Part shown: positions 2,961 through 15,956 of the stretch, one piece after another
Layout of the letters: every line of letters begins with the position of its first letter
Numbering within the stretch: the first letter of the stretch is position 1
Assembly: GCA_948502395.1 (NCBI GenBank)
Contig: CAOPES010000006.1
Coordinates: 49,101-113,100 of the forward strand
Source: an uncultured Clostridia bacterium
Lineage (GTDB): Bacteria; Bacillota; Clostridia; TANB77; CAG-508
Direction of reading: 5' to 3'
DNA: 64,000 nucleotides
Notes under the pieces: generated by a model
The model's input: the letters and a program-made list of their open reading frames with translations, nothing else
What the model was told of the DNA's origin: nothing
Databases searched by the model: none
Program-made: the position numbers and the translations under genes

Positions 2961-5570
2961 ATGAGTGAAGAAAACAAAATAGTAGACAGTATGGAAAATC
3001 TAGAAAGACTAATTGAAAGAGTAAAACAAGCTCAAAAAGAATTTTCAACATACACACAAGAGCAAGTCGACAAAATCTTTTTAGCAGCAGCAATGGCTGC
3101 AAACCAAGCAAGAATACCACTTGCAAAAATGGCAGTAGAAGAAACAGGAATGGGACTAGTAGAAGATAAAATAATAAAAAACCACTATGCAGCAGAATAT
3201 ATTTATAACAAATATAAAGCTGATAAAACATGTGGAGTAATAGAAGAAGACAAAGCATATGGAATTAAAAGAATAGCAGAGCCAATAGGACTAATTGCAG
3301 CAGTCATACCAACAACAAATCCGACATCAACAGCAATTTTTAAAACACTAATAGCTTTAAAAACAAGAAATGGAATAATAATAAGTCCACACCCAAGAGC
3401 AAAAAAATCAACAATAGAAGCATCTAGAACAATATTAGAAGCAGCAGTTAAGGCAGGAGCACCAGAAGGAATAATTGGTTGGATAGATGTTCCATCACTA
3501 GAATTTACAAATACATTAATGAAGTCAGCAGATACAATACTTGCAACAGGTGGACCTGGAATGGTAAAATCAGCATATTCAAGTGGAAAGCCAGCACTGG
3601 GAGTTGGAGCAGGAAATACACCTGCAATTATAGACGAATCAGCAGATATTCTTTTAGCAGTAAACTCTATAATTCATTCAAAAACATTTGATAACGGTAT
3701 GATATGTGCATCAGAGCAATCAGTAATAGTATTAGATAAAATTTATGATGAAGTAAAAGCGGAATTCCAAAAAAGGGGTTGTTACTTCTTAAATACAGAA
3801 GAGACAGAAAAAGTTAGAAAAACCATAATAATAAATGGAGCATTAAACGCTAAGATAGTTGGTCAAACAGCACATACAATAGCTAATTTAGCAGGAATAG
3901 AAGTACCAAAAGAAACAAAAATACTAATAGGTGAAGTAGAAAGTGTTGAACTATCAGAAGAATTTGCACACGAAAAATTATCTCCGGTTTTAGCAATGTA
4001 TAAAGCAAAGGATTTTGATGAAGCAATAGAAAAAGCAATACACTTAATAAATGATGGTGGACTAGGACATACGTCATCACTTTATATAAATACAAATACA
4101 CAAAATGAAAAAATAGAAAAGTTTTATCGAAATATGAGAACGTGTAGAGTAGTAATAAATACTCCTTCATCACATGGTGGAATAGGAGATTTATATAACT
4201 TCAAACTAGCACCATCACTAACACTTGGTTGTGGTTCATGGGGTGGAAACTCGGTGTCAGAAAACGTAGGAATAAAACATTTATTAAATATAAAAACAGT
4301 AGCTGAAAGGAGAGAAAATATGCTTTGGTTCAGAGCACCTGAAAAGGTATATATAAAAAGGGGTTGCTTACCAGTAGCCTTAGAAGAATTAAAAAACGTA
4401 ATAGGAAAAAAGAAAGTATTTATAGTAACAGATACATTTTTATTTGAAAATGGATATACAAAGCCAATAACAGATAAATTAGATGAAATGGGAATTATGC
4501 ACACAACATTCTCAAATGTTGAACCAGACCCTACACTTGCAAGTGCAAAACAAGGTGCTAAAGCTATGAATGACTTCAAACCAGATTGCATTATTGCAGT
4601 TGGTGGTGGTTCTGCAATGGATGCAGCAAAAATAATGTGGGTACTATATGAACATCCGGAAGCAGATTTTATGGATATGGCTATGAGATTTATGGATATA
4701 AGAAAAAGAGTATACACATTCCCTAAAATGGGAGAAAAAGCATATTTTATAGCAATTCCTACATCAGCAGGAACAGGTTCAGAAGTAACACCATTTGCAG
4801 TAATAACAGACGAAAAAACAGGAACAAAATATCCATTAGCAGATTATGAATTAATGCCAAAAATGGCAATAGTAGATAGCAATATGATGATGGATGCACC
4901 AAAAGGATTAACATCAGCATCAGGAATAGATGCAGTAACACACAACTTAGAAGCGCTAGCATCAATGATGGCAACAGAATATACAGACGGTTTAGCAATA
5001 GAAAGTTTAAAAAATATATTTAAGTATTTACCAAGAGCATATGAAAACGGAGCAAATGACCCAGAAGCAAGAGAGAAAATGGCAAATGCCGCAACAATGG
5101 CAGGTATGGCCTTTGCAAACGCTTTCTTAGGAGTATGTCACTCAATGGCTCACAAATTAGGAGCATTCCACCACTTACCACATGGTGTGGCAAATGCAAT
5201 AATGATAAACATTGTATTAAGATTTAATAGTAGCGAAGTACCAACAAAAATGGGAACATTCCCACAATATGATCATCCAAAAACATTAGAAAAATACGCA
5301 TATGTTTCAAGATGCCTAGGGTTTGGTGGAGAGACAGACGAACAAAGCTTAGAAAATTTAATTAATGCAATAGAAGAATTGAAAGAAAAAATTGGAATTA
5401 AAAAGACTATCAAAGATTATGGTGTTGATGAATCATATTTCCTAGAAAAATTGGACGAAATGACAGAGCAAGCATTTGATGACCAATGTACAGGAGCTAA
5501 CCCAAGATTACCACTTATGAGCGAAATTAAAGAAATGTATTTAGAAGCATATTATGGAGGTAAACAATAA
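2961..5570 (+). CDS. adhE: Bifunctional acetaldehyde-CoA/alcohol dehydrogenase
   Basis: 869 aa. N-terminal aldehyde dehydrogenase domain, C-terminal Fe-ADH domain (GGGSAMDAAK) and a His-rich Fe site. Strong SD AGGAGG. Confidence 0.95.
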   Translation: MSEENKIVDSMENLERLIERVKQAQKEFSTYTQEQVDKIFLAAAMAANQARIPLAKMAVEETGMGLVEDKIIKNHYAAEYIYNKYKADKTCGVIEEDKAYGIKRIAEPIGLIAAVIPTTNPTSTAIFKTLIALKTRNGIIISPHPRAKKSTIEASRTILEAAVKAGAPEGIIGWIDVPSLEFTNTLMKSADTILATGGPGMVKSAYSSGKPALGVGAGNTPAIIDESADILLAVNSIIHSKTFDNGMICASEQSVIVLDKIYDEVKAEFQKRGCYFLNTEETEKVRKTIIINGALNAKIVGQTAHTIANLAGIEVPKETKILIGEVESVELSEEFAHEKLSPVLAMYKAKDFDEAIEKAIHLINDGGLGHTSSLYINTNTQNEKIEKFYRNMRTCRVVINTPSSHGGIGDLYNFKLAPSLTLGCGSWGGNSVSENVGIKHLLNIKTVAERRENMLWFRAPEKVYIKRGCLPVALEELKNVIGKKKVFIVTDTFLFENGYTKPITDKLDEMGIMHTTFSNVEPDPTLASAKQGAKAMNDFKPDCIIAVGGGSAMDAAKIMWVLYEHPEADFMDMAMRFMDIRKRVYTFPKMGEKAYFIAIPTSAGTGSEVTPFAVITDEKTGTKYPLADYELMPKMAIVDSNMMMDAPKGLTSASGIDAVTHNLEALASMMATEYTDGLAIESLKNIFKYLPRAYENGANDPEAREKMANAATMAGMAFANAFLGVCHSMAHKLGAFHHLPHGVANAIMINIVLRFNSSEVPTKMGTFPQYDHPKTLEKYAYVSRCLGFGGETDEQSLENLINAIEELKEKIGIKKTIKDYGVDESYFLEKLDEMTEQAFDDQCTGANPRLPLMSEIKEMYLEAYYGGKQ

Positions 5571-6325
5571 TGTATATAAATTTAGATAATCCAATAGTAG
5601 AAAGAAAAACGAAAACTGTATATAGAGACAATGACAAAACGATAAAATTATTTGTAGAAAATTACTCAAAAGCAAATATTTTAAATGAAGCTCTAAATCA
5701 AGCAAGAGTTGAAGAAGGCACAGAACTAGCTGTACCTAAATTAATAGAAGTAAGCAAAATAGACAATAGATGGGCATTGGTATCAGAACACATTGAAGGA
5801 AAACCGCTTGATAAACTAATGGAAGAACACCCAGAAAAAGAAGATGAATATTTGAACAAATTTATAGATATTCAATTAGAAGTGCTATCAAACAGAGTGC
5901 CTTTGCTAAATAGAATGAAGGAAAAATATAGAAGGAAGATAAATGAAGCAGATATAAATGAAAATACTAAATATGATTTATTACAAAGATTAGAAGGAAT
6001 GAGAAGTGATTTAAGTTTGTGTCATGGCGATTATAATCCAAGTAATGTCATTATAAAAGATGATGGCACTGCATATGTAATTGACTGGGCACACGTAACT
6101 ATGGGGAATAGCGCAGCTGATGCTGCTAGAACTTATTTAATATTTTCATTAGACAGTAAGGAAAATTTAGCTGATAAATATTTGAATTTATTTTCTGAAA
6201 AGAGTGGGATTGAGAAATCAAATATTCAAAGGTGGATTCCTATTGTTGCTGCTGCTCAACTTGCTGATAGTAATGCAGATAGAGAGTTGCTTCATAAATG
6301 GGTGGATGTTATAGAGTATCAATAA
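5570..6325 (+). CDS. Phosphotransferase-family protein (APH/choline-kinase-like kinase fold)
   Basis: Brenner motif LCHGDYNPSNVII and the VIDW motif. Overlaps the adhE stop (ATAATG). Confidence 0.6.
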   Translation: MYINLDNPIVERKTKTVYRDNDKTIKLFVENYSKANILNEALNQARVEEGTELAVPKLIEVSKIDNRWALVSEHIEGKPLDKLMEEHPEKEDEYLNKFIDIQLEVLSNRVPLLNRMKEKYRRKINEADINENTKYDLLQRLEGMRSDLSLCHGDYNPSNVIIKDDGTAYVIDWAHVTMGNSAADAARTYLIFSLDSKENLADKYLNLFSEKSGIEKSNIQRWIPIVAAAQLADSNADRELLHKWVDVIEYQ

Positions 6326-6345: not shown

Positions 6346-6945
6346 ATGAAAAATATAAATATAACAAGAAAAATTACACAGGGAATGTACGTATTAACAA
6401 CAAAAAATGGAGGATGCATAGTAGATGCAGTATCACAAATAAGTAGTAGTAATAATCCCCTAATATCAGTTGCAGTAATGAAAAGAAATTACACAAATGA
6501 ATTATTAAAAGTAAACGACAGATTTGCGATATCCGTATTAGGGAAGGATGTAAATCCAAAAATAATAAAAACATTTGGATTTAATTCATCAAGAGATATT
6601 AATAAATTTGATAAGACAGAAACAATTAAAATAGAAGATATAGATGTTATAAAGAATTCATTAGGCTATATGATTTGTGAAATAGTCGATAAAATTGAAA
6701 ATGATACTCACACATTATTTATAGGAAAGATAATAGAAGCGGATATTTTTGAAGATACAGAGCCTATGAGTTATGGCTATTATCAAGAACATAAAGATGA
6801 ATTGCTAAAAGTTACGACTGAAAAGGGAAAGACTGCTTGGATTTGTACAGTATGTGGGTATATTTATTATGGCGAAGAATTGCCCGAAGATTTTAAATGC
6901 CCTTTATGTGGAGTTGGAAGAGAATTTTTTAAGAAGAAAGAATAA
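6346..6945 (+). CDS. Flavin-reductase-domain/rubredoxin fusion (high-molecular-weight rubredoxin, Hrb-like)
   Basis: N-terminal flavin-reductase-like domain. C-terminal rubredoxin CTVCGYIY...CPLCG (two CxxC pairs). Confidence 0.7.
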   Translation: MKNINITRKITQGMYVLTTKNGGCIVDAVSQISSSNNPLISVAVMKRNYTNELLKVNDRFAISVLGKDVNPKIIKTFGFNSSRDINKFDKTETIKIEDIDVIKNSLGYMICEIVDKIENDTHTLFIGKIIEADIFEDTEPMSYGYYQEHKDELLKVTTEKGKTAWICTVCGYIYYGEELPEDFKCPLCGVGREFFKKKE

Positions 6946-6985
6946 ATTAGCATTGGGAAATAATAAATAAAAAATTCAAAAGAAC

Positions 6986-7007
6986 TTTTTGGGACAGGTC
7001 AAAAAAA
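6986..7007. repeat. GC-rich palindromic intergenic repeat, half copy (tttttGGGACAGGtcaaaaaaa)
   Basis: Member of the GGGACRG-core repeat family seen at 8 loci in this window. Confidence 0.5.
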
Positions 7008-7010
7008 TTA

Positions 7011-7040
7011 TTGACAAAGTGAATAAAAAAGTAGTATAAT
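7011..7040 (+). promoter_or_regulatory. Sigma-A promoter driving the toxI-like repeats and toxN
   Basis: TTGACA 7011-7016, 18-nt spacer, TATAAT 7035-7040. Confidence 0.65.
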
Positions 7041-7100
7041 AAATATATTAAGAACAGCAATCATCTGATTACTAATAGGGAGTTCTTACTAAAAAAGGAC

Positions 7101-7194
7101 GATTTAAAATTAGGTAAAGTTCAAGCCTTATAAATGAACTGATTTAAAATTAGGTAATGCTTAGCCTTATAAGTAAGCAGTTTTAAAATAAAGG
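7101..7194 (+). ncRNA. toxI: ToxI-like type III antitoxin RNA: 2.3 tandem 40-nt repeats
   Basis: 7101-7140 and 7141-7180 are near-identical 40-mers (gatttaaaattaggtaa[ag]g[tc]t[ct]a[ag]gccttataa[ag]t[ga]a[ag]c...). A partial third repeat spans 7181-7194. The array sits between a promoter and a terminator directly upstream of a ToxN-family gene. Confidence 0.7.
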
Positions 7195-7223
7195 GGCACA
7201 TTTGAAAAGATGTGCTCTTTTTG
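7194..7223 (+). terminator. Rho-independent terminator between the toxI repeats and toxN (canonical type III TA attenuator)
   Basis: gcacatttgaaaagatgtgc hairpin followed by tcttttt. Confidence 0.7.
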
Positions 7224-7247
7224 TATTCTTTTAAGAAAGAGGTAAAA

Positions 7248-7763
7248 ATGGAAGAATTATTATTTTACGTTGTTGATAGAAAATATATACAATATTTAAG
7301 TGAGTTCGAGAAACATATAAGTTACAATAAAGATGATATAGGGCATAGTAGACCATATTTAGGAATCGTGCTGAAAATAGATAATTATGAATATTTTGTA
7401 CCACTATATTCATATAAAGAGCATTACAAAAAATACAAAAATAATCCTAGTTTTTTCTTTGTAAAAGATAGAAAAGATAGACCACTGGCAATTATCAAAT
7501 TTTCAGCAATGATACCTGTACCTAAAACAACAAATGTAACAGAACTGTTAAGATATGGAGAGCAAGATAAAAAATATAAAGATTTAATATCAGCAGAATA
7601 TAGATACATCAATTCAAACAAAAGCGAAATTTATAAAAGAGCAAATAAAATGTATGTAGCAGTTACACAACATAAAAATAATTTTTTAAAAACTATTGCT
7701 TGTGATTTTAAACTATTAGAAGAAAAAAGTTTAAAGTACAAAGAAAATTATAGTAAAAATTGA
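7248..7763 (+). CDS. toxN: ToxN/AbiQ-family type III toxin endoribonuclease
   Basis: Clear similarity to Pectobacterium ToxN and Lactococcus AbiQ: KYIQYLSEFE, GIVLKIDNYEYFVPLYS, IIKFSAMIPV and CDFKLLEEK. Start chosen at the ATG at 7248 with SD AGAAAGAGG. The upstream ATG at 7212 lies inside the terminator. Confidence 0.85.
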   Translation: MEELLFYVVDRKYIQYLSEFEKHISYNKDDIGHSRPYLGIVLKIDNYEYFVPLYSYKEHYKKYKNNPSFFFVKDRKDRPLAIIKFSAMIPVPKTTNVTELLRYGEQDKKYKDLISAEYRYINSNKSEIYKRANKMYVAVTQHKNNFLKTIACDFKLLEEKSLKYKENYSKN

Positions 7764-7874
7764 ACAGTTTGTTGCAGAATATACGACAACTAAACAAAAT
7801 ATTATTTTTAAATGGACAAAAACTTAAATATGTATTACAATATTACTTGGATAAAAATAAAAGGAGAAAGCAAA

Positions 7875-8597
7875 ATGTTAAATCAATTCTCAAGAACAGA
7901 GCTGTTAATAGGAAAAGAAGGAATAGAGAAACTAAAAAAAGCAAAAGTAGCAATATTTGGAATAGGTGGAGTAGGTTCATTTGTAGCAGAAGGACTAGCA
8001 AGGGCAGGAGTAGAAAAATTCGTATTAGTAGACAATGACCAAATAAGCATAACAAACTTAAACAGGCAAATAATAGCTACAATAAAAACAATAGGAAAAA
8101 ATAAGGTTGATGTAATGAAAGAAAGGATACTAGAAATCAATCCAAATGCACAAGTAGAGATATATCGAGAATTCTATATGCCAAATTCAGAAACCCAAAT
8201 AATAACACAAGACCTAACATATGTAGCAGACTGTGTAGACACAGTTACTGCAAAAATAGAAATTATTATGCAATGTAAAAAATTAGGAATTCCAGTAATA
8301 TCATCAATGGGAACAGGAAATAAGCTAGACCCATTAAAATTTGAAATTACAGATATTTATAAGACAAGTGTATGCCCACTAGCAAAAGTTATGAGAAAAG
8401 AATTGAAAAAAAGAAATATAGAAAGCTTGAAGGTGTTATATTCAAAAGAAGAACCAATAAAAGCAACCAATAATACAGAATGTTTATCAGAAACAAAGAA
8501 AGCACAAGTACCAGGAAGTATATCATTTGTACCATCTGTTGCAGGATTAATAATTGCAGGAGAAATTGTAAAAGATATTATAAAAAATAATGAATAG
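7875..8597 (+). CDS. tcdA: tRNA threonylcarbamoyladenosine dehydratase (ThiF/MoeB E1-like)
   Basis: GxGxxG FGIGGVGS, LVDNDQISITNLNRQ; SD AAGGAG. Confidence 0.8.
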   Translation: MLNQFSRTELLIGKEGIEKLKKAKVAIFGIGGVGSFVAEGLARAGVEKFVLVDNDQISITNLNRQIIATIKTIGKNKVDVMKERILEINPNAQVEIYREFYMPNSETQIITQDLTYVADCVDTVTAKIEIIMQCKKLGIPVISSMGTGNKLDPLKFEITDIYKTSVCPLAKVMRKELKKRNIESLKVLYSKEEPIKATNNTECLSETKKAQVPGSISFVPSVAGLIIAGEIVKDIIKNNE

Positions 8598-8609
8598 GAG
8601 TGATAAAAA

Positions 8610-8867
8610 ATGGAGTATAGATATAGACCAGAAGGGGTTTGTTCAGTTGAAATGATTTTTAATATTGAAAATGATATTGTAAAAAAGTTAAAAATAGTAG
8701 GTGGATGCCCTGGAAATACAGTGGGAGTGTCAAAGTTGATAGAAAATAAATCTATTGAAGAGATAATTAGTTTATTAAAGAGTATTCAATGTGGAAATAA
8801 AGGAACTTCTTGTCCAGACCAAGTAGCAAGAGCTTTAGAAAAATATAAATTACAAAAATTGAAATAA
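8610..8867 (+). CDS. TSCPD-domain protein (TIGR03905 family)
   Basis: 85 aa with the TSCPDQ motif. Confidence 0.6.
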   Translation: MEYRYRPEGVCSVEMIFNIENDIVKKLKIVGGCPGNTVGVSKLIENKSIEEIISLLKSIQCGNKGTSCPDQVARALEKYKLQKLK

Positions 8868-8933
8868 ATACATTAAAAATTATACATGTTTTCAAAAATA
8901 GATAGAAAATAAGAAAAAAGGATAGAATTAAAA

Positions 8934-9242
8934 ATGAAAATAATTACATTATGTGGAAGTTTAAAATTTCAAAAAGAAATGATGGAAATTGCAGAAAAAA
9001 TGGCATTGGAAGGATATTGTATCCTTACACCTGTTTATACTGTATCAAAAAATATTGAAATAAACAAGGAACAATTGGTAAAATTGAAAGAAGCACATTT
9101 TAAAAGAATAGAATTATCTGATAGCATATTAGTAGTAAATGTAAATAATTACATTGGAAATAGCACAAATTTAGAAATAGAATATGCTAAAAAATTAGGT
9201 AAAGAAATTATATATTATACCGATTTAATGAAAAATGATTAA
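8934..9242 (+). CDS. Hypothetical 102-aa protein (possibly nucleoside 2-deoxyribosyltransferase-like/SLOG fold)
   Basis: ORF with an SD. ITLCGS...ILVV pattern. No confident family assignment. Confidence 0.35.
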   Translation: MKIITLCGSLKFQKEMMEIAEKMALEGYCILTPVYTVSKNIEINKEQLVKLKEAHFKRIELSDSILVVNVNNYIGNSTNLEIEYAKKLGKEIIYYTDLMKND

Positions 9243-9333
9243 AGCAACAACATACAACTTTGAAAAATGAAAGAAAAGACAGTAACTTTTGGCAAGAGAT
9301 AACTAATGCAGTCCTTTTACCCACAGTAAGGAG

Positions 9334-10129
9334 ATGTTTATATTGGAAAAATTAGATTTTTTAATTGATTATTTATTACAAGAAAATAAAAAAATAAAAA
9401 TAGAAAAAATGCCATCAAATTTAGAAGAGAAAAAGAATTTATGGAGAAGCTTATGTAATATAAGAAATGCAAAGCCAATTTCTAATGAATACCTAAAAGT
9501 AGAAAAAGAATATTTACAAGAAGAATTAAAGAATAAAATAGTAACAAATGTAGAAGATATAAAACCAATTTTTGATAAAATATGTTTATGGAAGGGTGAT
9601 ATAACAACATTATCAATAGAGTGTATTGTAAATGCAGCAAACTCCTCAGGACTTCGGATGTTTTACTCCTTGCCATAAGTGTATTGACAATCAAATAAAT
9701 ACATTTGCAGGAGTAGGATTAAGATTGGAATGTAATGAAAAAATGAAACAAATTGGTAAATTAGAAACAGGAAAAGCATTTATTACAAAAGCACATAATT
9801 TACCTTCAAACTATGTTATTCATACTGTTGGGCCAATTATATATGAAAATGTCACAGAAAAAGAAATACAAGAACTAAAAAATTGTTATATTAATTCGTT
9901 AGAATTAGCAAAAGAAAATAACATACGAGAAATTGCATTTTGCTCTATATCAACAGGAGAATTTAGATTCCCAAAGGTACAAGCGAGTAAAATAGCGATA
10001 AATACAGTAAAGGAATACTTAAAGAAAAATGAAAAATACTTTGATAAAATAATTTTTAATGTATTTAAAGATGAAAATTACGATATTTATTTTAAAAATT
10101 TGAATCCAATAATAGTAAAGAGTATATAA
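9334..10129 (+). CDS. Zn-type macrodomain protein-ADP-ribosylhydrolase (SauMacro/SpyMacro class). Needs a +1 shift at the in-frame CGG at 9655-9657.
   Basis: IVNAANSS(G)L|GCFTPCHKCIDN...VIHTVGP macro signature with Cys/His Zn motif. Frame 1 stops 7 codons after the CGG. Skipping the C of cttCGGatg gives a continuous 265-aa protein. Confidence 0.7.
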
Positions 10130-10269
10130 TGTACCAGAAACAAAAGCATATAGAAAGATAAGATTAGAAATATAAAAAATAAAGATAGGTAATAGTTTAA
10201 ATATTATCTATCTTTTGTGTTATAATTATCATATAAGGGAGATTATTTTTGTAATTTCTCTTTTTTTGC

Positions 10270-10321
10270 TTGACAATCAAAAAATAAAATAGTATCATTG
10301 TATTATGCAAGTAATACAATG
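10270..10321 (+). promoter_or_regulatory. Promoter and palindromic operator of the gntR-ABC operon
   Basis: TTGACA 10270-10275, TATCAT 10293-10298. Perfect 10-bp inverted repeat cattgtatta-N6-taatacaatg (10296-10321) overlapping the start codon region. Confidence 0.6.
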
Positions 10322-10702
10322 ATAGAAAGGAAAGAAAAAGTGGAGTATATTTTTGATAATGAAAGACCAATTTACATACAACTAGTTGAGATAATAAGAA
10401 CTCAAATTATTTCAGGGAAACTACAAAAAGGAGAAAGATTACTATCTGTAAGAGAGCTAGCACTTACAATGAAAGTAAATCCAAACACAATGCAAAAAGC
10501 ACTAGTAGAACTGGAAAATGAGGGCCTAGTTTATACAGAAAGAACAAACGGAAAATTTGTAACAGAAAACGAAGAACTAATTGAAAAAGTAAAAAGAGAA
10601 TTGGCCAAAGAAAAAGTAAATACATATTTAAACAGTATGAAAAATATAGGAATTAACTTTGAAGAAGCCATCAATTACTTGCAAGAACTAGGAGGAAAGT
10701 AA
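10298..10702 (+). CDS. GntR-family (YtrA-like) transcriptional repressor
   Basis: Winged HTH LSVRELALTMKVNPNTMQKAL. Start is either TTG 10298 or ATG 10319. First gene of a regulator-ABC-permease operon. Confidence 0.7.
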   Translation: MYYASNTMIERKEKVEYIFDNERPIYIQLVEIIRTQIISGKLQKGERLLSVRELALTMKVNPNTMQKALVELENEGLVYTERTNGKFVTENEELIEKVKRELAKEKVNTYLNSMKNIGINFEEAINYLQELGGK

Positions 10703-10703
10703 T

Positions 10704-11399
10704 ATGGAATTAGTACAATGTAAAAACTTATACAAAAAATTTGATAATCAAGAAATTCTAAAAAACATCAACTTAACAATTCCAAAAGGAAAAATTATAG
10801 GCCTACTTGGAAAAAATGGAATGGGAAAAACAACATTAATAAAACTAATAAATGACTTACTAACACCAACAAGTGGAGAGATTTTAATAAACGGAAAAAA
10901 TCCAGGAGTACAATCAAAAAAAGTAATATCATATCTACCAGAAAGAACATATTTAGATAAAGGTATGACTGTAAAGCAAGTTTTAAAATACTTTGAAGAA
11001 TTTTACGACAATTTTAATAGAGAACGTGCAGAAAAACTTTTAAAAGACCTAGACTTAGAAATTAATAAAAAAATTTCACATATGTCAAAAGGTATGCAAG
11101 AAAAACTACAATTAATATTAGTAATGAGTAGAGAAGCAGAACTGTATATTTTAGATGAGCCATTAGGCGGTGTAGACCCAGCAACAAGAGATTATATATT
11201 AGACACAATACTATCAAATTTTAAAGAAGGTGCAAGTGTTCTCATTTCAACTCATCTAATTGCAGATATTGAAAGGATATTAGATGATGTTATATTTATA
11301 GACAAAGGTGAAATTAAACTGACTTCATCTGCTGATGAATTAAGAAGAAAAGAGAATGCAAGTATAGACGAAATATTTAGGAGGTCTTTTAAATGTTAG
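10704..11399 (+). CDS. ABC transporter ATP-binding protein
   Basis: Walker A GKNGMGKTT, signature MSKGMQEKL, Walker B LYILDEP. Confidence 0.85.
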   Translation: MELVQCKNLYKKFDNQEILKNINLTIPKGKIIGLLGKNGMGKTTLIKLINDLLTPTSGEILINGKNPGVQSKKVISYLPERTYLDKGMTVKQVLKYFEEFYDNFNRERAEKLLKDLDLEINKKISHMSKGMQEKLQLILVMSREAELYILDEPLGGVDPATRDYILDTILSNFKEGASVLISTHLIADIERILDDVIFIDKGEIKLTSSADELRRKENASIDEIFRRSFKC

Positions 11400-12184
11400 G
11401 AAAATTATTAAAATATGATTTAAAATGGATATATAAAGTAGTAATAGTTTTTTATGCTTTATCATTTATATTTGCTATTATTACAAGAATATGCTTTAGC
11501 ATAGAAAGCTCAGCTTTATTTGGAATTTTAGGACAAATAGCCGCCGGATTTACTATAAGTATGCTTGCAAGTAGTTTGATAAATGGAATAATGAGGTCTT
11601 GGGCAAGATTTATTATAAATATTTATAAAGACGAAAGTTATCTAACACATACATTACCAATTGAAAAAAGACAAATATATCTATCAAAAGTTTTAGCAGC
11701 TATAATTTGTATATTTGTAACAGTTGTGGTTGCATTAGTATGTTTATTTATATGCTACTATTCTAAAGAAAACATAGAATTTTTGAAACAAATCTTAGAG
11801 TTAGCTGCAAACACCTATGACACAACAGTTATTAATTTATTATTAGTAATTTCATTTATATTATTCCTAGAAATAGTTTTTGTAGTTTTAGTAGGCTATG
11901 TAGGAATTATAATTGGACATAGAGCTAATAAGAACAAAATGGTTAATTCAATTGCAACAGGATTTGGATTATATATGTTTACAAATGCTTTATCTTTATG
12001 TCTTGTTGGTTCGATAGCTATGTTTAATAAAGATATTATGAATTTAATAAATACAATGGAGATTATAAATATTGATGTGATTAAAATAATTATGATATCG
12101 GCTATTGCAATCTATATGTTCTATAATGTTGTTTATTATTTTATTGGAAAAAGATTGCTTGAAAAGGGTGTTAATGTGGACTAG
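11393..12184 (+). CDS. ABC-2-type membrane permease component (YtrC/YtrD-like)
   Basis: Six predicted TM segments. Overlaps the ATPase gene stop. Confidence 0.6.
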   Translation: MLGKLLKYDLKWIYKVVIVFYALSFIFAIITRICFSIESSALFGILGQIAAGFTISMLASSLINGIMRSWARFIINIYKDESYLTHTLPIEKRQIYLSKVLAAIICIFVTVVVALVCLFICYYSKENIEFLKQILELAANTYDTTVINLLLVISFILFLEIVFVVLVGYVGIIIGHRANKNKMVNSIATGFGLYMFTNALSLCLVGSIAMFNKDIMNLINTMEIINIDVIKIIMISAIAIYMFYNVVYYFIGKRLLEKGVNVD

Positions 12185-12195
12185 AGTGTAAAACA

Positions 12196-12232
12196 AAAGT
12201 TGTGATAGGAGTTAATTTAACTCCTATTTTTT
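12196..12232 (+). terminator. Rho-independent terminator
   Basis: ataggagttaatttaactcctat followed by tttttg. Confidence 0.7.
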
Positions 12233-12390
12233 GTATTTATTAATTTAAAAAATAAATTAATAAAAAAATATTGACAAATAAGTAAAAGAGATGTAAAATA
12301 CAAACAGCAGTTCAAATGGAGAAATAAATATAGTCTAAAAGTAGAAATATAAGTAGCAGGAACTAAATTTTAGAGAAAGGATGTGTACTT

Positions 12391-13344
12391 ATGGAAGAGA
12401 AGAAAAACGAGATTATTTTATTTGAGAATCAGGGGGTGAAATTAGAAGTAAATTTAAAAGACGAGACAGTATGGCTAACACAAAAGCAAATGTCTAAATT
12501 ATTTAATAAGGACAGAAGAACAATAACAAGACATATTCAAAATATATATAAGTGTGGAGAATTAGACGAAAATTCAGTATGCTCATTTTTTGAGCATACT
12601 GCGGAAGATGGAAAAATATACAAAGTCCAATATTATAATTTAGATATGATTATTTCCATTGGATATAGGGTAAACAGCAAACAAGGTGTTGCATTCAGAC
12701 AATGGGCAAACAAAATCCTAAAAGACTACATGTTAAAAGGATACGCTGTAAACCAAAAAAGATTAGAATACTTAGAAAAAACAATAAAACTAATAGACAT
12801 AGCAAACAGAATAGACGAAAGACTAGAAAACAATGATGCAAAAGAAATACTAAAAGTAATAGGAGAATACTCAAAAGCATTAGACCTATTAGACGATTAT
12901 GACCACAGAACATTAAAAAAGATAAAAGGCAATACAGACGAAAGAAAAATAGAATATAGTGAATGTATAGACATAATAAATAAACTTAGATTTAACGAAG
13001 AAAGTACACTATTTGCAGTAGAAAGAGACAAAGGATTACAATCAATAATTGGAAACATATATCAAAGTTTTGCAGGACAAGATATATACAAAAGCATTGA
13101 AGAAAAAGCAGCAAACTTTTTATACTTAATAGTAAAAAATCATGTATTTGCAGACGGAAATAAAAGAATAGCAGCAACACTATTTATATATTTCTTAAAC
13201 TTTTATGGAATTTTATATAAAGAAAACAAGCAAACAATCGATAACAACACATTAACAGCTTTAACTTTATTAATTGCAGAATCAAATCCAAAAGAAAAAG
13301 AAATAATAGTAGATTTGGTAATGAACTTTTTAAATAATGAATAA
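12391..13344 (+). CDS. RhuM-family N-terminal domain fused to Fic/Doc domain
   Basis: RhuM signature ...ETVWLTQKQMSKLF...HIQNIYKCGEL. Degenerate Fic motif HVFADGNKRIAA (HxFx[DE]GNxR). Confidence 0.75.
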   Translation: MEEKKNEIILFENQGVKLEVNLKDETVWLTQKQMSKLFNKDRRTITRHIQNIYKCGELDENSVCSFFEHTAEDGKIYKVQYYNLDMIISIGYRVNSKQGVAFRQWANKILKDYMLKGYAVNQKRLEYLEKTIKLIDIANRIDERLENNDAKEILKVIGEYSKALDLLDDYDHRTLKKIKGNTDERKIEYSECIDIINKLRFNEESTLFAVERDKGLQSIIGNIYQSFAGQDIYKSIEEKAANFLYLIVKNHVFADGNKRIAATLFIYFLNFYGILYKENKQTIDNNTLTALTLLIAESNPKEKEIIVDLVMNFLNNE

Positions 13345-13418
13345 GAAATCAAATTAGCTAGCACATATATAATTATGTAATAGCTAATTTTATTTTATAA
13401 AAACATTATAAAAAAGTA

Positions 13419-13477
13419 TTGACAGTTGAGTACTTATTCACATATAATACAAGTAAAGTTGAATGAATACTCAATTA
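13419..13477 (+). promoter_or_regulatory. cadC promoter with flanking imperfect inverted 15-mers (likely ArsR/CadC operator)
   Basis: TTGACA 13419-13424, TATAAT 13443-13448. TTGAGTACTTATTCA at 13426-13440 and its near reverse complement at 13461-13477. Confidence 0.5.
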
Positions 13478-13504
13478 TAATATAAAAAGTAAGGAGGCAA
13501 TCAA

Positions 13505-13867
13505 ATGTCTAAAAATGAATTTATATGTGATTGCAATGTAATCCACCAAGATGTGGTTAACAAAACAACAGAAAATATGCTAGAAGAAGACACATTTAAT
13601 AAATTAGCAGAATTTTTCAAAATTGTTGGAGATACCACAAGAGTAAAAATATTATTTGCATTAGACAAAAACGAGATGTGTGTATGTGATATTGCAAACG
13701 TATTAGGAATGAGTAAATCATCTATTTCACATCAACTAGGAACATTAAGAAGAAGCGGAATTGTTAAATGTAGAAAATCAGGGAAAGAAGTTTTCTATAT
13801 GTTAGATGATGAACATGTAAAAAAAGTATTTGAAATAGGTGTAGAACACATAGAGCATAAAAAGTAG
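13505..13867 (+). CDS. cadC: ArsR/SmtB-family metalloregulator (CadC-like)
   Basis: HTH plus metal-binding Cys pairs (CDC N-terminal, CVCD). Confidence 0.8.
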   Translation: MSKNEFICDCNVIHQDVVNKTTENMLEEDTFNKLAEFFKIVGDTTRVKILFALDKNEMCVCDIANVLGMSKSSISHQLGTLRRSGIVKCRKSGKEVFYMLDDEHVKKVFEIGVEHIEHKK

Positions 13868-13880
13868 GAGAAGTAATGAT

Positions 13881-15956
13881 ATGAAAAGTAAATTTAAAAT
13901 AAATGGATTAGATTGTGCAAATTGTGCTAATGAATTAGAAAGAGCAATACAGAAGGTAGACGGAATAAAAAGTGCAAATATAAACTTTATAGCACAAAAA
14001 ATGGAACTTGAATATGACGAAGATATAAAAGAAGAAATTATAGTAGAAGTAAAAAAAGTTATAAAAAAAGAAGAGCCAGACGTAACAATAGAAGAAGTCG
14101 GCAAAGCTGTACCAATAAAGAAAAAAGCAATTAAGATTATTCTTGCAGCCATACTATTTTTCATTGCGATTACAATAAAATTTAATAGTGAATTAATAAA
14201 TAATACAATATATATAATATCTTATATTATCGTTGGACTAGAAATTGTAAAAAAAGCAGTAATGAATATTATAAAAGGAAAAGTGTTTGATGAGAACTTT
14301 TTAATGGCTATTGCAACATTAGGTGCATTTGGAATTGGAGAGTTTCCAGAAGCGGTAGCAGTTATGCTATTTTATCAAGTAGGAGAATTATTCCAAAGTT
14401 ATGCAGTAGATAAATCAAGAAAATCAATTTCAAAATTAATGGACATTAGACCAGACTTTGCCAATGTAGAAAGAGAAGGAAAAATCCAAAAAGTAAACCC
14501 AGAAGACGTAACAATTGGAGAAATAATTGTAATTAAGCCAGGTGAAAAAGTTCCATTAGACGGATATGTAATAGAAGGAAAATCAAGTTTAGATACAAAA
14601 GCTTTAACAGGAGAAAGTTTGCCACGAGAATTAACAGAAGGAGAATTAGCGTTAAGTGGTTCAATAAATTTAAATGGTTTAATAAAAATCGAAGTAACAA
14701 AAGAATATGGAGAATCAACAGTAAGCAAAATATTAGACTTAGTAGAAAATGCAAGTAACAAAAAATCAAAATCAGAAAACTTTATTACAAAATTTGCAAG
14801 ATATTATACACCAATTGTCGTAATTATTGCAGTTATACTTGCCATAGTACCACCACTTATTATAAAAAATACAGAATTCTCTGTTTGGTTATATAGAGCA
14901 CTATCATTCTTGGTAGTATCTTGTCCTTGTGCATTGGTAATCTCAATACCACTAAGCTTTTTTGGTGGAATTGGTGGTGCTTCTAAAATGGGAATTTTAA
15001 TAAAAGGAAGTAACTATTTAGAGCAATTATCAAATGCAGAAATAATTGTATTTGATAAAACTGGAACATTAACAGAAGGGGTTTTTGAAGTACAAAAAGT
15101 TAATGCGATAGATATGTCAGAAGAAGAATTACTAAAAATCACAGCATATAGTGAGAATTATTCAAATCATCCAATTTCTATATCAGTGAAAAAAGCATAT
15201 GGAAAAGAAATTGATGAAAAACAAATTATAGAAACACAAGAGTTATCTGGACTTGGTGTTTTTGCAAAAATTGGAGAAAAAGATGTATTAGTAGGAAATG
15301 AAAAACTTATGAATGAAAATCAAGTTGAATTTACAAAGTGTAAAGAGATAGGTACAGCACTATATGTAGCAATAAATGGGAAATATTCAGGTTATATATT
15401 AATATCAGATAAAATAAAAAAGGATTCAATCAAAGCAATTAAAGATTTAAAGAAAAATCATATTAAACAAACAGTAATGCTAACAGGAGATAGAAAAGAC
15501 GTTGGCGAAAGTGTAGCAAAAAAACTAGGAATAGATAAGGTTTATACAGAATTGTTGCCAGATGGAAAAGTAGAAAAAATGGAAAACTTATTAAAAGAAA
15601 AAAGTGAAAAGGGTAAACTAGCATTTGTGGGTGACGGAATAAATGACGCGCCAGTTTTGGCTTTGGCAGACATTGGTATTGCAATGGGTGGACTTGGTGC
15701 TGATAGTGCAATAGAAGCGGCAGATGTTGTGCTTATGACAGATGAACCTTCAAAAATTGTAGACGCTATTCACTTGTCAAAAAGAACGATGAAAATTGTT
15801 AGAGAAAATATTGTTTTTGCTATTTCTGTAAAGGTGCTTGTTTTGATATTGAGTGCATTTGGAGTATCAACTATGTGGGAAGCTGTGTTTGCTGATGTTG
15901 GTGTTTCTGTAATAGCTATTATAAATGCTTTAAGAGCGTTAAGAGTGAAGTTTTAA
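13881..15956 (+). CDS. cadA: Heavy-metal (Cd/Zn/Co/Pb) translocating P1B-type ATPase
   Basis: N-terminal HMA GLDCANCA, CPC transmembrane motif, DKTGT, GDGINDAP. Confidence 0.9.
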   Translation: MKSKFKINGLDCANCANELERAIQKVDGIKSANINFIAQKMELEYDEDIKEEIIVEVKKVIKKEEPDVTIEEVGKAVPIKKKAIKIILAAILFFIAITIKFNSELINNTIYIISYIIVGLEIVKKAVMNIIKGKVFDENFLMAIATLGAFGIGEFPEAVAVMLFYQVGELFQSYAVDKSRKSISKLMDIRPDFANVEREGKIQKVNPEDVTIGEIIVIKPGEKVPLDGYVIEGKSSLDTKALTGESLPRELTEGELALSGSINLNGLIKIEVTKEYGESTVSKILDLVENASNKKSKSENFITKFARYYTPIVVIIAVILAIVPPLIIKNTEFSVWLYRALSFLVVSCPCALVISIPLSFFGGIGGASKMGILIKGSNYLEQLSNAEIIVFDKTGTLTEGVFEVQKVNAIDMSEEELLKITAYSENYSNHPISISVKKAYGKEIDEKQIIETQELSGLGVFAKIGEKDVLVGNEKLMNENQVEFTKCKEIGTALYVAINGKYSGYILISDKIKKDSIKAIKDLKKNHIKQTVMLTGDRKDVGESVAKKLGIDKVYTELLPDGKVEKMENLLKEKSEKGKLAFVGDGINDAPVLALADIGIAMGGLGADSAIEAADVVLMTDEPSKIVDAIHLSKRTMKIVRENIVFAISVKVLVLILSAFGVSTMWEAVFADVGVSVIAIINALRALRVKF

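Follow-up and report, generated by a model that had tools for sequence, protein, structure and literature searches.

A probable ToxIN-family type III toxin-antitoxin cassette in the chromosome of an uncultured gut Clostridia bacterium

The window analyzed here, a stretch of 64,000 nucleotides from an uncultured Clostridia bacterium (GCA_948502395.1, contig CAOPES010000006.1), carries at positions 7011-7763 a block of about 750 bp in which a promoter, a leader, an array of toxI repeats, a terminator and a toxN gene follow one another along the + strand. This order is the canonical type III layout, and the cassette qualifies as such a locus by the criteria of Blower et al. 2012 (PMC3401426). The initial annotation had proposed a type III ToxIN/AbiQ-like locus made up of four elements (promoter, repeats, terminator and ToxN gene). 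Each of them was found at the place claimed for it, and the proposal as a whole was borne out by HMM searches, the predicted fold, conservation in 68 orthologous loci and covariation in the RNA pseudoknots.

The upstream boundary is formed by a sigma-70-type promoter at 7011-7040 (-35 box TTGACA at 7011-7016, 18-nt spacer, -10 box TATAAT at 7035-7040). This TTGACA/TATAAT promoter, already noticed ahead of the repeats in the initial annotation, matches the consensus at all 12 of 12 positions and suggests a transcription start at about 7047. Promoter-like sites in general occur in the region at chance level (six found versus 6.9 expected); the sole perfect one is that at 7011-7040, which recurs in each related locus for which sufficient upstream sequence is available. 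Being the single promoter upstream of the repeats, it is predicted from its position to serve both toxI and toxN.

Between the promoter and the repeats, RNAalifold predicts a 5' leader hairpin at 7056-7073 (AGCAATC at 7056-7062, loop ATCT, GATTACT at 7067-7073), which carries one C·A mismatch in the window. Among 24 distinct leaders, 98% of the cells of this hairpin are paired, and three of its seven pairs show two-sided changes, such as AGUAAUU/AAUUACU and AGCAAU/AUUGCU. It is followed by, and overlaps with, a degenerate "repeat 0" at 7067-7100 (GATTACTAATAGGGAGTTCTTACTAAAAAAGGAC) with an internal hairpin (GTTCTT at 7082-7087, AAGGAC at 7095-7100). By eye, repeat 0 matches the layout of the first regular unit (GATT..A..AGG..GTTC..CCT..AAA..GAAC, with one C of CCT missing in the window) and thus resembles a diverged first antitoxin unit, the 5' end of which may be sequestered by the leader hairpin. 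Its internal hairpin is paired in 94% of cells, with one-sided (G-U) changes only. Repeat 0 could not be accepted generally as a full third pseudoknot unit: L016, L020, L068 and the L059 group lack the AGG/CCT pairing, so the pseudoknot is not conserved, and conservation is confined to the hairpin. An outer helix suggested by the single-sequence fold (AAGAAC at 7050-7055 with GTTCTT at 7082-7087) was also rejected, since AAGAAC is not conserved in most orthologues.

The toxI array itself was detected by TRF as a tandem repeat at 7101-7189 with a period of 39, 2.2 copies, 82% matches and a score of 115. The 2.3 tandem 40-nt repeats first annotated at 7101-7194 are therefore real, the array ending at 7189 with 2.2 copies, and the differences are within rounding. 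Unit 1 (40 nt, 7101-7140) contains stem S1 (AGGT at 7112-7115, GCCT at 7125-7128), stem S2 (AGTTCA at 7118-7123, TGAACT at 7135-7140) and an A-rich loop, TATAAA, at 7129-7134; pair counts support both stems, S1 also showing covariation across the wider ToxI class, and the unit is invariant in 24 species-level loci. Unit 2 (7141-7179), likewise backed by TRF and pair counts, is 39 nt long owing to the deletion of one base, and has its S1 at 7152-7155 (AGGT) and 7164-7167 (GCCT) and its S2 at 7158-7163 (TGCTTA) and 7174-7179 (TAAGCA). Three pairs of S2 differ between the two units, each on both sides, and the stem specific to unit 2 stays at the unit 2 position in all orthologues. The array ends in a partial third unit, GTTTTAAAAT, at 7180-7189, which reads GTTTTAAATTAGG in most orthologues, where it continues into the terminator stem, and which supplies an AAAU junction 3' of unit 2.

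Three such AAAU junction motifs are present (7107-7110, 7147-7150 and 7186-7189), and the surrounding unit columns 8-12 (AAATT) are invariant across 39 distinct units. By analogy with the cleavage motifs AA/AU of ToxN_Pa (PMC5086642) and GAAAU of E. coli ToxN (PMC10853763), they are predicted to be the sites at which ToxN processes the precursor, with cleavage positions that are ambiguous because AAAU also occurs within the pseudoknot loop of most orthologues' units, including unit 1 of the window (unit 2 of the window instead has TATAAG). An Rfam scan of 6900-7900 at E-values up to 10 gave chance matches only, the best with 17-21 bits versus cut-offs of 45-54. Elsewhere in the window, 11-mer matches to the unit were at chance level (seven found versus 7.7 expected); a covariance model built from the unit gives those at 9192 and 62475 scores of 10-16 bits. 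On distant loci this model (R1) reports about one unit per array, since adjacent 46-nt matches overlap; units of distant loci were therefore extracted by hand and aligned with MAFFT.

The repeats are separated from toxN by an intrinsic terminator at 7190-7231, consisting of a stem-loop of 14 pairs (7190-7221) and a T run, in line with the rho-independent terminator placed there in the initial annotation. Two terminator-like sites were found in the region versus 0.1 expected from shuffles, and orthologues differ from one another in the stem by G-U/G-C/A-U exchanges and by a single change affecting both sides. A ribosome-binding site (AAAGAGG, 7236-7242, GAGG being conserved in orthologues) lies 5 nt upstream of the ATG of toxN (7248-7763), which is predicted to encode a ToxN/AbiQ-family endoribonuclease toxin of 171 aa. 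The ORF list had a longer version of 183 aa with a GTG start at 7212. This start was rejected, as it falls inside the terminator stem and lacks a ribosome-binding site; the ATG at 7248 has one, and all relatives align from there.

The similarity of this protein to ToxN, which the initial annotation had claimed from the letters alone, was examined by an HMM search against PF13958. ToxN_toxin, the sole Pfam match of the toxin, was matched over its full length (E=8.4e-43; 146.7 bits with the cut-off at 25; positions 3-159 of the 159 in the profile). The AbiQ model of PADLOC matched with E=9e-42 and phmmer retrieved ToxN and AbiQ chains from the PDB with E=1e-13 to 9e-24; no family was matched in an NCBIfam scan. 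An AF2 model (pLDDT 88.3, pTM 0.86) gave Foldseek TM-scores of 0.82, 0.79, 0.77 and 0.79 to 4ATO, 4GLK, 2XD0 and 7D8O, respectively, and predicts the ToxN fold, with a twisted antiparallel beta core, surrounding helices and a long helix 3. The ORF is intact and full length, and all family-invariant residues are present. S55 and K57 align with the active-site residues S53 and K55 of ToxN_Pa, and S55 also with S51 of AbiQ; they are invariant or nearly so. Of the ToxN_Pa residues Y29, K33 and T52, the first corresponds to H33, the second to a gap (or R35) and the third to Y54, Tyr29 and Thr52 thus not being conserved; ToxN_Bt likewise has H-S-R-P at that position.

The same promoter-leader-repeat-terminator-toxN block recurs in 68 related gut Clostridia loci, 28 in species-representative genomes and 40 in metagenomes, and the host relatives are MAGs only. 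The homology sets in at the -35 box, at 7001-7011 for other species, and ends with the stop codon of toxN. The mean identity is 87.4% in the non-coding RNA region, and 84.0%, 91.4% and 66.5% at codon positions 1, 2 and 3 of toxN. Judged by these values, the antitoxin RNA is under strong purifying selection, being conserved beyond synonymous sites, and in most loci purifying selection also acts on the toxin (91% at codon position 2 versus 66% at position 3). Units were present in all 63 of the 63 fully viewed loci, with two canonical units in 58 and one in five. L017 and L052 have one unit in addition to unit 0. In nine of these 63 loci (about 14%) toxN is broken and toxI retained; loss of toxN before toxI is the order to be anticipated for an RNA that guards the cell against the protein. 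The toxins of this clade are at least 70% identical to one another; nothing else found exceeds 40% identity to them, and none of intermediate identity (between 40% and 61%) was found. At the DNA level no close relative of the cassette turned up on plasmids, a search of the IMG/VR viral contigs was likewise empty, and a protein search of phage records returned four distant matches (32-37% identity) and no close ones.

Covariance and pseudoknot modelling of the repeat, proposed in the initial annotation as a check of the 40-mer, revealed compensatory changes in both stems. Taken together, 97.9% of the cells of S1 and S2 are paired, versus 19-52% when the partners are slid. For S2, two-sided changes distinguish the unit types in three of six pairs. 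For S1, such changes affect three of four pairs across the wider ToxI class, and 13 two-sided cells were counted versus 4.6±1.7 after shuffling, a value reached in 0 of 500 shuffles; the S1 core AGG/CCU is invariant within the clade, so the support for S1 comes from relatives and from one-sided changes of the fourth pair. The loops of the unit (2-3, 0-1 and 6 nt) agree with the Group I ToxI template, an H-type pseudoknot with 3-4 nt between strands 1a and 2a, 1-2 nt between 2a and 1b and a longer stretch between 1b and 2b (PMC3401426). Each unit is thus predicted, with the support of covariation, to fold as a ToxI-type H-type pseudoknot that fits this template. Unit lengths of 40 and 39 nt, 2.2 copies and a toxin of 171 aa are mid-range for the toxIN family, in which repeats measure 31-62 nt (mean 38.1), copies number 1.9-5.6 (mean 2.8) and toxins average 168 aa (PMC3401426, Table 2).

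On these grounds we consider it highly probable (roughly 0.86) that 7011-7763 is a chromosomal type III toxin-antitoxin cassette of the ToxIN family, complete in itself. Its mode of action may be proposed by analogy with characterized systems. The strong promoter would give rise to a transcript of the leader and the toxI array. Most transcripts would end at the intrinsic terminator, so that antitoxin RNA would be in excess, and occasional read-through would yield toxN mRNA. ToxN, as a sequence-specific endoribonuclease, would cut the precursor at the single-stranded AAAU between units, and each released unit of about 40 nt would fold into the H-type pseudoknot (S1 AGGU/GCCU, S2 of 6 bp, A-rich loop). 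Held on ToxN by its single-stranded tails, the unit would block the active site and inhibit the toxin within a closed RNA-protein complex, presumably with 3:3 stoichiometry. Should transcription of the locus cease, for instance when a phage shuts off the host or when the locus is lost, the RNA, being unstable, would be depleted, and freed ToxN could cleave cellular or phage RNAs, leading to growth arrest or aborted infection.

A more speculative reading, which we regard as rather unlikely, concerns the differences among the units. Instead of a simple repeat, the array may consist of three antitoxin subunits that are not equivalent and come in a fixed order: the degenerate unit 0 with its 5' hairpin cap, then unit 1, then unit 2. 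From species to species, each would retain the stem sequence proper to its place. If so, one transcript would supply a defined hetero-trimeric RNA for the ToxN3 complex, and the capped unit 0, which would have no 5' cleavage site, would be shielded from 5'-end-dependent decay and might serve as a more durable anchor fixing the threshold of toxin release. Related loci of the L086 type, whose three units have a common pseudoknot layout and no common stem sequence, would then be an extreme form of that principle. Alternatively, the unit differences could protect the array against recombinational collapse.

Several other explanations of the locus deserve consideration. It is quite conceivable, if somewhat short of even odds, that the mechanism is as proposed and the cassette is a selfish, addictive module or a stress-responsive growth brake, not a phage defence system. 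The suggestion of a candidate phage-defence island proved weak when the neighbourhood was inspected. The RhuM-Fic protein reported about 5 kb downstream is real. Its gene is found at a distance of 4.6 kb, within a patch rich in AT, and PADLOC identifies it as the candidate PDC-S23 (E=3.5e-125), which speaks for a defence context; it is, however, the sole confident PADLOC match within 6 kb. Between it and toxN there are ThiF, TSCPD, macro, GntR and ABC-transporter genes, of which ThiF matches PADLOC models in its E1 domain only and the ABC ATPase by generic ATPase similarity. No clustering of defence systems recurring across genomes was observed: the flanks of the cassette differ in nearly every species, and in most species it stands alone amid core genes, for instance between LexA and SpoIVA or between an amidase and GH94. 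The lack of close relatives on phages or viral contigs points the same way, and the broken toxN genes mentioned above suggest relaxed selection in some lineages, as opposed to the purifying selection on the toxin in most loci. Characterized systems provide precedents for both roles, since ToxIN_Bt stabilizes plasmids and has no Abi phenotype in its native host (PMC5086642), whereas ToxIN_Pa, AbiQ and E. coli ToxIN abort phage infection (PMC5086642, PMC10853763). The two roles are not mutually exclusive.

The closed complex could also take a form other than the triangular 3:3 heterohexamer, such as the 2:2 assembly of CptIN. At 40 nt, the unit exceeds the three crystallized ToxI RNAs (34-36 nt; PMC3401426, PMC5086642) by 4-6 nt and has an S2 of 6 bp instead of about 3 bp, so that the geometry of assembly could differ; 40 nt is also the lower end of the CptI range of 40-48 nt (PMC3401426, PMC5086642), each transcript holds two full canonical units, and a review considers that the quaternary structure is probably determined by how long the antitoxin is and how it folds (PMC5086642). 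We nevertheless think such an assembly improbable: the toxin is of the ToxN type (TM 0.77-0.82, versus 0.59 for CptN), the loop lengths follow the ToxI template and not the one-base loop 1 of CptI, 40 nt also lies inside the toxIN-family range of 31-62 nt (PMC3401426), and the three solved ToxN-family complexes, from Pa, Bt and E. coli, are reported to be cyclic, those from Pa and Bt being triangular 3:3 (PMC5086642, PMC8860590). It is very improbable that the locus is an inactive relic, with a silent or dead toxin or with repeats kept only as a transcriptional leader or attenuator. Such decay might be read from the mismatch in the leader hairpin, the C missing from repeat 0, the 1-nt deletion in unit 2 and the broken toxN of about 14% of related loci; yet the same deletion occurs in L001 and L002, whose toxN is intact, and the window has an intact toxN, a perfect-consensus promoter, an undamaged terminator and ribosome-binding site, and an RNA conserved well beyond the level of synonymous sites.

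The cassette is a typical further member of the ToxIN type in a gut Clostridia chromosome. This type of system is already well described, and our understanding of type III systems is unchanged. What is peculiar to the present locus, namely its leader hairpin, degenerate first unit and position-specific repeats, amounts to minor variation. Characterized ToxIN-family members are mostly plasmid-borne, and the present locus adds a well-delimited chromosomal clade from uncultured gut Clostridia. Genome pipelines usually overlook the RNA half of such loci. The 68 naturally varied loci offer material for a covariance model of this ToxI class, the repeat of the window having no Rfam match, and help to annotate the RNA half of ToxIN-type loci.

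Comparison with known systems places the locus closest to ToxIN. With CptIN of Eubacterium rectale (4RMO) it shares the type III layout, about two repeats and a unit at the lower edge of the CptI range; the toxin differs (TM 0.59, 16% identity), no CptN-type HMM matched it, and the CptI pseudoknot, whose loop 1 is a single base and which also has a long A-minor-twist loop (PMC5086642), contrasts with the ToxI-like loops of the window unit. The remark in the initial annotation that the array is short as in the CptIN type is thus unnecessary, since about two copies are normal inside the toxIN family. That annotation had also suspected a distinct ToxI family. It was right that the primary sequence is no nearer to Pectobacterium or Bacillus ToxI than shuffled sequence is; a separate family is not warranted, as the unit fits the Group I template and related units accompany ToxN relatives of 30-40% identity.

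The closest solved toxin is that of ToxIN_Bt from Bacillus thuringiensis pAW63 (4ATO; E=8.8e-24, 32% identity, TM 0.82). Both loci have the part order promoter, repeats, terminator and toxN, units starting with AAAAUU(A/G)G and compensatory stem differences among the units of one array, and the window array comes to about three units if repeat 0 is counted. They differ in that ToxIN_Bt is on a plasmid and the window locus is chromosomal, and in that the Bt units are 34 nt long with a second stem of about 3 bp (40 nt and 6 bp in the window) and directly follow the -10 box, without a leader hairpin or degenerate unit; the two units match at 22 of 40 positions versus 21.4±2.2 after shuffling, i.e. 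not above controls. For AbiQ/antiQ of Lactococcus lactis (4GLK) the comparison was made on the toxin only. AbiQ has the ToxN-family fold (TM 0.79), and its active-site PLLSYK, with the essential Ser51 (PMC5086642), is matched by the motif PL(Y/L)SYK; it is 24% identical, plasmid-borne and has a demonstrated Abi phenotype, and antiQ is described as about 2.8 repeats of 35 nt that are cut in an A-rich stretch. ToxIN_Pa of Pectobacterium atrosepticum pECA1039 (2XD0/2XDD) and E. coli ToxIN (7D8O) share the locus layout and the toxin fold (TM 0.77 and 0.79) at 25% toxin identity, and the invariant (N)AAAU junction of the window is compatible with their cleavage motifs, AA/AU and GAAAU (PMC5086642, PMC10853763). 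ToxI_Pa has 5.6 near-identical 36-nt repeats (98% matches), in contrast to the 2.2 non-identical ones of the window (82%), and the active-site Tyr29 and Thr52 of ToxN_Pa are not conserved there.

Other ToxIN loci of gut Clostridia and Eubacteriales (L029, L090, L098, L102, L110 and others), whose toxins are 30-40% identical, usually have 2.9-3.3 regular units and no leader hairpin. They have the same promoter and terminator arrangement, and their 35-38 nt units carry the anchors of the window unit, (A)AAAG-nGGUGA-stem-AGCC-UAUAAAU-stem; the unit of L098 shares 30 of 40 bases with that of the window, versus a maximum of 27 after shuffling.

The initial annotation had placed a ToxIN-type locus at this site, and the layout, the scans and the protein family all show that the locus is present and that this main interpretation was right. 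A promoter on the + strand (TTGACA-18 nt-TATAAT, 7011-7040; 12 of 12 in the promoter scan) is followed by a 60-nt leader, two direct repeats (unit 1, 7101-7140; unit 2, 7141-7179) and a 10-nt partial toxI copy (7180-7189), all read from the sequence. A terminator, consisting of a GC-rich hairpin (7190-7221) and a T run, was recognized both by reading and by the terminator scan, which saw 2 terminator-like sites compared with 0.1 expected. The toxN gene has the ribosome-binding site AAAGAGG, a 5-nt gap and an ATG at 7248, and its open frame runs to the stop at 7763 (171 aa). Tandem Repeats Finder (TRF) delimited the toxI array at 7101-7189 (period 39, 2.2 copies, 82% matches). The ORF list also held a 183-aa version of toxN from GTG 7212; this start falls within the terminator stem and lacks a ribosome-binding site, which makes the 171-aa frame from 7248 the correct one.

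In line with the similarity to ToxN claimed for it, the toxin itself matched the ToxN family HMM (PF13958) end to end (E=8.4e-43, 146.7 bits, cut-off 25), and the PADLOC AbiQ model with E=9e-42. Among solved structures, only the four ToxN-family toxins were matched by sequence, the best being B. thuringiensis ToxN (4ATO, E=8.8e-24). The AlphaFold2 model, for which 30 relatives were used, was confident (pLDDT 88.3, pTM 0.86), and Foldseek gave it TM scores of 0.77-0.82 to 4ATO, AbiQ (4GLK), ToxN_Pa (2XD0) and E. coli ToxN (7D8O), followed by CptN (4RMO, 0.59), with MazF/Kid toxins far lower. Alignment with the ToxN proteins of Bacillus and Pectobacterium showed S55 to be invariant and K57 to be nearly so; these are the aligned positions of ToxN_Pa S53 and K55 and of the essential Ser51 of AbiQ. 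Y29 and T52 of ToxN_Pa correspond to H33 and Y54, as in Gram-positive relatives (roles of the ToxN_Pa and AbiQ active-site residues are from PMC5086642).

Scanning GTDB genomes, one for each species, detected 28 close toxin relatives (72-92% identity) and a single distant one (L029, 36%); the MAGs that carry them are all labelled as uncultured Clostridia, Clostridium or Clostridiaceae. The metagenome scan added 40 close loci and 40 distant loci at 30-40% identity, and just one locus, at 61%, falls in the gap between 40% and 74%. Except for two variants with promoter deletions, L065 and L072, all close loci with enough upstream sequence share promoter, leader, repeats and terminator, and their DNA homology to the window starts at 7001-7011 and ends at 7726-7761, limits that coincide exactly with the -35 box and the toxN stop. 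The mean identity to the window over 26 loci is 87.4% for the putative RNA (7047-7221) and 84.0%, 91.4% and 66.5% for toxN codon positions 1, 2 and 3. The putative toxI RNA therefore experiences purifying selection of much the same strength as the amino-acid-changing positions. Separately, one short, low-coverage metagenome contig (L061) has an intact toxN belonging to this clade, and at the expected position of toxI (L061:1-83) its sequence is unrelated; the contig could be a chimera of the assembly or a locus devoid of toxI.

Most of the difference between the two units falls in one 6-nt segment and the segment pairing with it (AGUUCA...UGAACU vs UGCUUA...UAAGCA), and the single-unit loci L027, L028 and L052 contain a third version of this stem (AGCUCA...UGAGCU). 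The proposed fold is an H-type pseudoknot of stem S1 (AGGU/GCCU) and the 6-bp stem S2. Over 39 distinct units, 97.9% of cells are paired compared with 19-52% when partners are slid, and three S2 pairs show two-sided changes. The S1 core is invariant inside the clade, where only the fourth pair changes (U-G to U-A in four cases, to C-G in two, broken in one); the relatives at 30-40% identity were therefore examined. Most of them have 35-39-nt units with the anchors of the window, (A)AAAG-nGGUGA-stem-AGCC-(U)AUAAAU-stem. In a MAFFT alignment of 30 units from these distant relatives, three of the four S1 pairs change on both sides: among the states seen, pair 1 occurs as A-U, G-C, U-A and C-G, pair 2 goes from G-C to A-U, and pair 4 from U-G to G-C or U-A. 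Such changes occupy 13 cells, compared with 4.6±1.7 after shuffling (none of 500 shuffles reached 13) and no more than 2 in slid controls, and some occur between units of one array (e.g. L110, L102, L090 and L083). The loops measure 2-3, 0-1 and 6 nt, the pattern of the 'Group I' ToxI RNAs of Blower et al. 2012 (PMC3401426).

In eight distant loci (L081, L082, L086, L088, L094, L103, L104 and L106), TRF finds no tandem repeat in the ~200 nt upstream of toxN. By eye, three ~37-nt units are visible there, with the pseudoknot layout kept and the stems all different (GGGU..UCUCA.GCCC..UGAGA, GAGC..UCUUG.GCUC..CAAGA, GAGC..UCGC.GCUC..GCGA). Antitoxins of this kind would be missed by screens built on repeat finders.

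The leader shows the same degree of conservation as the repeats. Its 5' hairpin (7056-7073; 7 bp) is 98% paired across 24 distinct leaders, with two-sided changes at three pairs; in the window itself, one pair is a C·A mismatch. A stretch resembling a diverged unit, GAUUACUAAUAGG-AGUUCUU-ACCU-AAAAAAGAAC, here termed repeat 0, occupies 7067-7100 and is made up of the 3' arm of the 5' hairpin and the 27 nt beyond it. Repeat 0 keeps its own hairpin GUUCUU/AAGAAC (94% of cells paired, wobble changes only), several lineages have lost its AGG/CCU pairing, and it has no (N)AAAUU motif on its 5' side. Many distant relatives have 2.9-3.3 regular units per array; the simplest reading is that the array once had ~3.2 units and that, in the clade, the first unit degenerated and gained a 5' cap hairpin.

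Related loci also show decay and rearrangement. Among 63 fully viewed loci, nine (L024-L028, L073, L074, L078 and L079) keep toxI with toxN interrupted by a frameshift or stop; MAG assembly errors are a possible source. Broken toxN genes were found in 3 of 5 loci with a single canonical unit vs 6 of 58 with two (Fisher p=0.018, the loci not being independent). Two single-unit loci, L017 and L052, have an intact toxN; repeat 0 and one unit may suffice there. Moreover, the L059 group of loci carries an orphan 29-nt copy of unit 1 (L059:1181-1209) ~60 nt upstream of the -35 box. L065 and L072 lack promoter, leader and repeat 0, and in them the upstream gene they share with the L059 group is followed directly by unit 1; they look like recombination deletions between the orphan copy and unit 1.

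On the model of the homologous systems ToxIN_Pa, ToxIN_Bt, AbiQ and E. coli ToxIN (PMC5086642, PMC8860590, PMC10853763), toxI would be made abundantly from the promoter and toxN expression held down by the terminator. ToxN would cut the precursor between units, and the pseudoknots would remain bound through their single-stranded tails, blocking the active site in a closed RNA-protein ring; once transcription stopped, the labile toxI RNA would be lost and ToxN freed. Between units, (N)AAAUU (7107-7111, 7147-7151 and 7186-7189) is the sole single-stranded stretch that never varies, and it reads GAAAU at the unit 1-unit 2 junction of most clade loci. These predicted cut sites agree with the motifs described for ToxN, AA/AU in Pa and GAAAU in E. 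coli (PMC5086642, PMC10853763), and the 3' cut for unit 2 would come from the conserved partial third unit. The ToxIN family features that can be assessed in silico were found, with the active site of ToxN_Pa matched in part (S55 and K57, as against H33 and Y54); toxicity, processing, stoichiometry and any phage defence are predicted by homology.

Upstream of toxIN (7011-7763) lie a long ORF of 869 aa (2961-5570; AdhE-like by eye), an APH-type kinase (5570-6325) and a flavin reductase-rubredoxin (6346-6945). Downstream are a ThiF-family protein (7875-8597), TSCPD (8610-8867), a DUF4406-like protein (8934-9242), a macro-domain gene in two ORFs (9334-10129), a GntR regulator with an ABC transporter (10298-12184), RhuM-Fic (12391-13344; Pfam PF13310 and PF02661) and an ArsR regulator with a P-type ATPase (13505-15956). 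The GC content is 25-27% over ~6.5-14 kb compared with 30-35% on both sides, and the kinase-to-GntR segment is unlike that of the close relative L002 (AdhE-kinase-toxIN-GntR), where toxIN alone fills it; this suggests that ~6500-14000 is a variable chromosomal segment. The candidate phage-defence island proposed earlier is not supported. The RhuM-Fic fusion matches the PADLOC candidate PDC-S23 along its whole length (E=3.5e-125), and PADLOC gave no other specific defence match near toxIN. The window synteny is shared only by L001, and in the species other than L001 and L002 the flanks are unrelated, e.g. LexA and SpoIVA, or amidase and GH94, in two examples resolved by gene calls. Thus, the cassette is a relocatable module that stands alone rather than belonging to a recurrent island, and neither a transposase or integrase nor flanking repeats were seen at it.

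Regarding neighboring gene calls, the ThiF-family ORF was listed from ATG 7812 (7812-8597). It probably starts at 7875, because this second ATG is preceded by the ribosome-binding site AGGAG and a promoter-like site occupies 7813-7841. Its PADLOC 'E1-E2' matches reflect the shared E1 domain only. The macro-domain ORFs overlap (9334-9678, without Pfam match; 9632-10129, Macro, E=6e-33), which could be due to a frameshift, a pseudogene or a sequencing error.

Compared with the 67 published toxIN loci, which are mostly chromosomal and mostly from Firmicutes (PMC3401426) and have repeats of 31-62 nt (mean 38.1), 1.9-5.6 copies (mean 2.8) and a mean toxin of 168 aa (PMC3401426, Table 2), the window locus (40 nt, 2.2 copies, 171 aa, Clostridia chromosome) is mid-range on all measures. 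The suggestion of a distinct ToxI family is not borne out: the window unit has no detectable primary-sequence similarity to ToxI_Pa or ToxI_Bt overall, but it shares their pseudoknot template and, with ToxI_Bt, the 5' AAAAUU(A/G)G, and units of other gut Clostridia ToxIN loci are clearly related to it. The three ToxI_Bt units of B. thuringiensis pAW63 (L030:410-515) also differ by compensatory stem changes, e.g. ACCU(U)AC/GUAGGU vs ACUC(U)AC/GUGAGU; therefore, non-identical, structure-preserving repeats are not peculiar to this clade. The window toxIN is a typical ToxIN of low novelty; it is unusual only in that its repeats are position-specific and compensated and in that its first unit is degenerate and capped.
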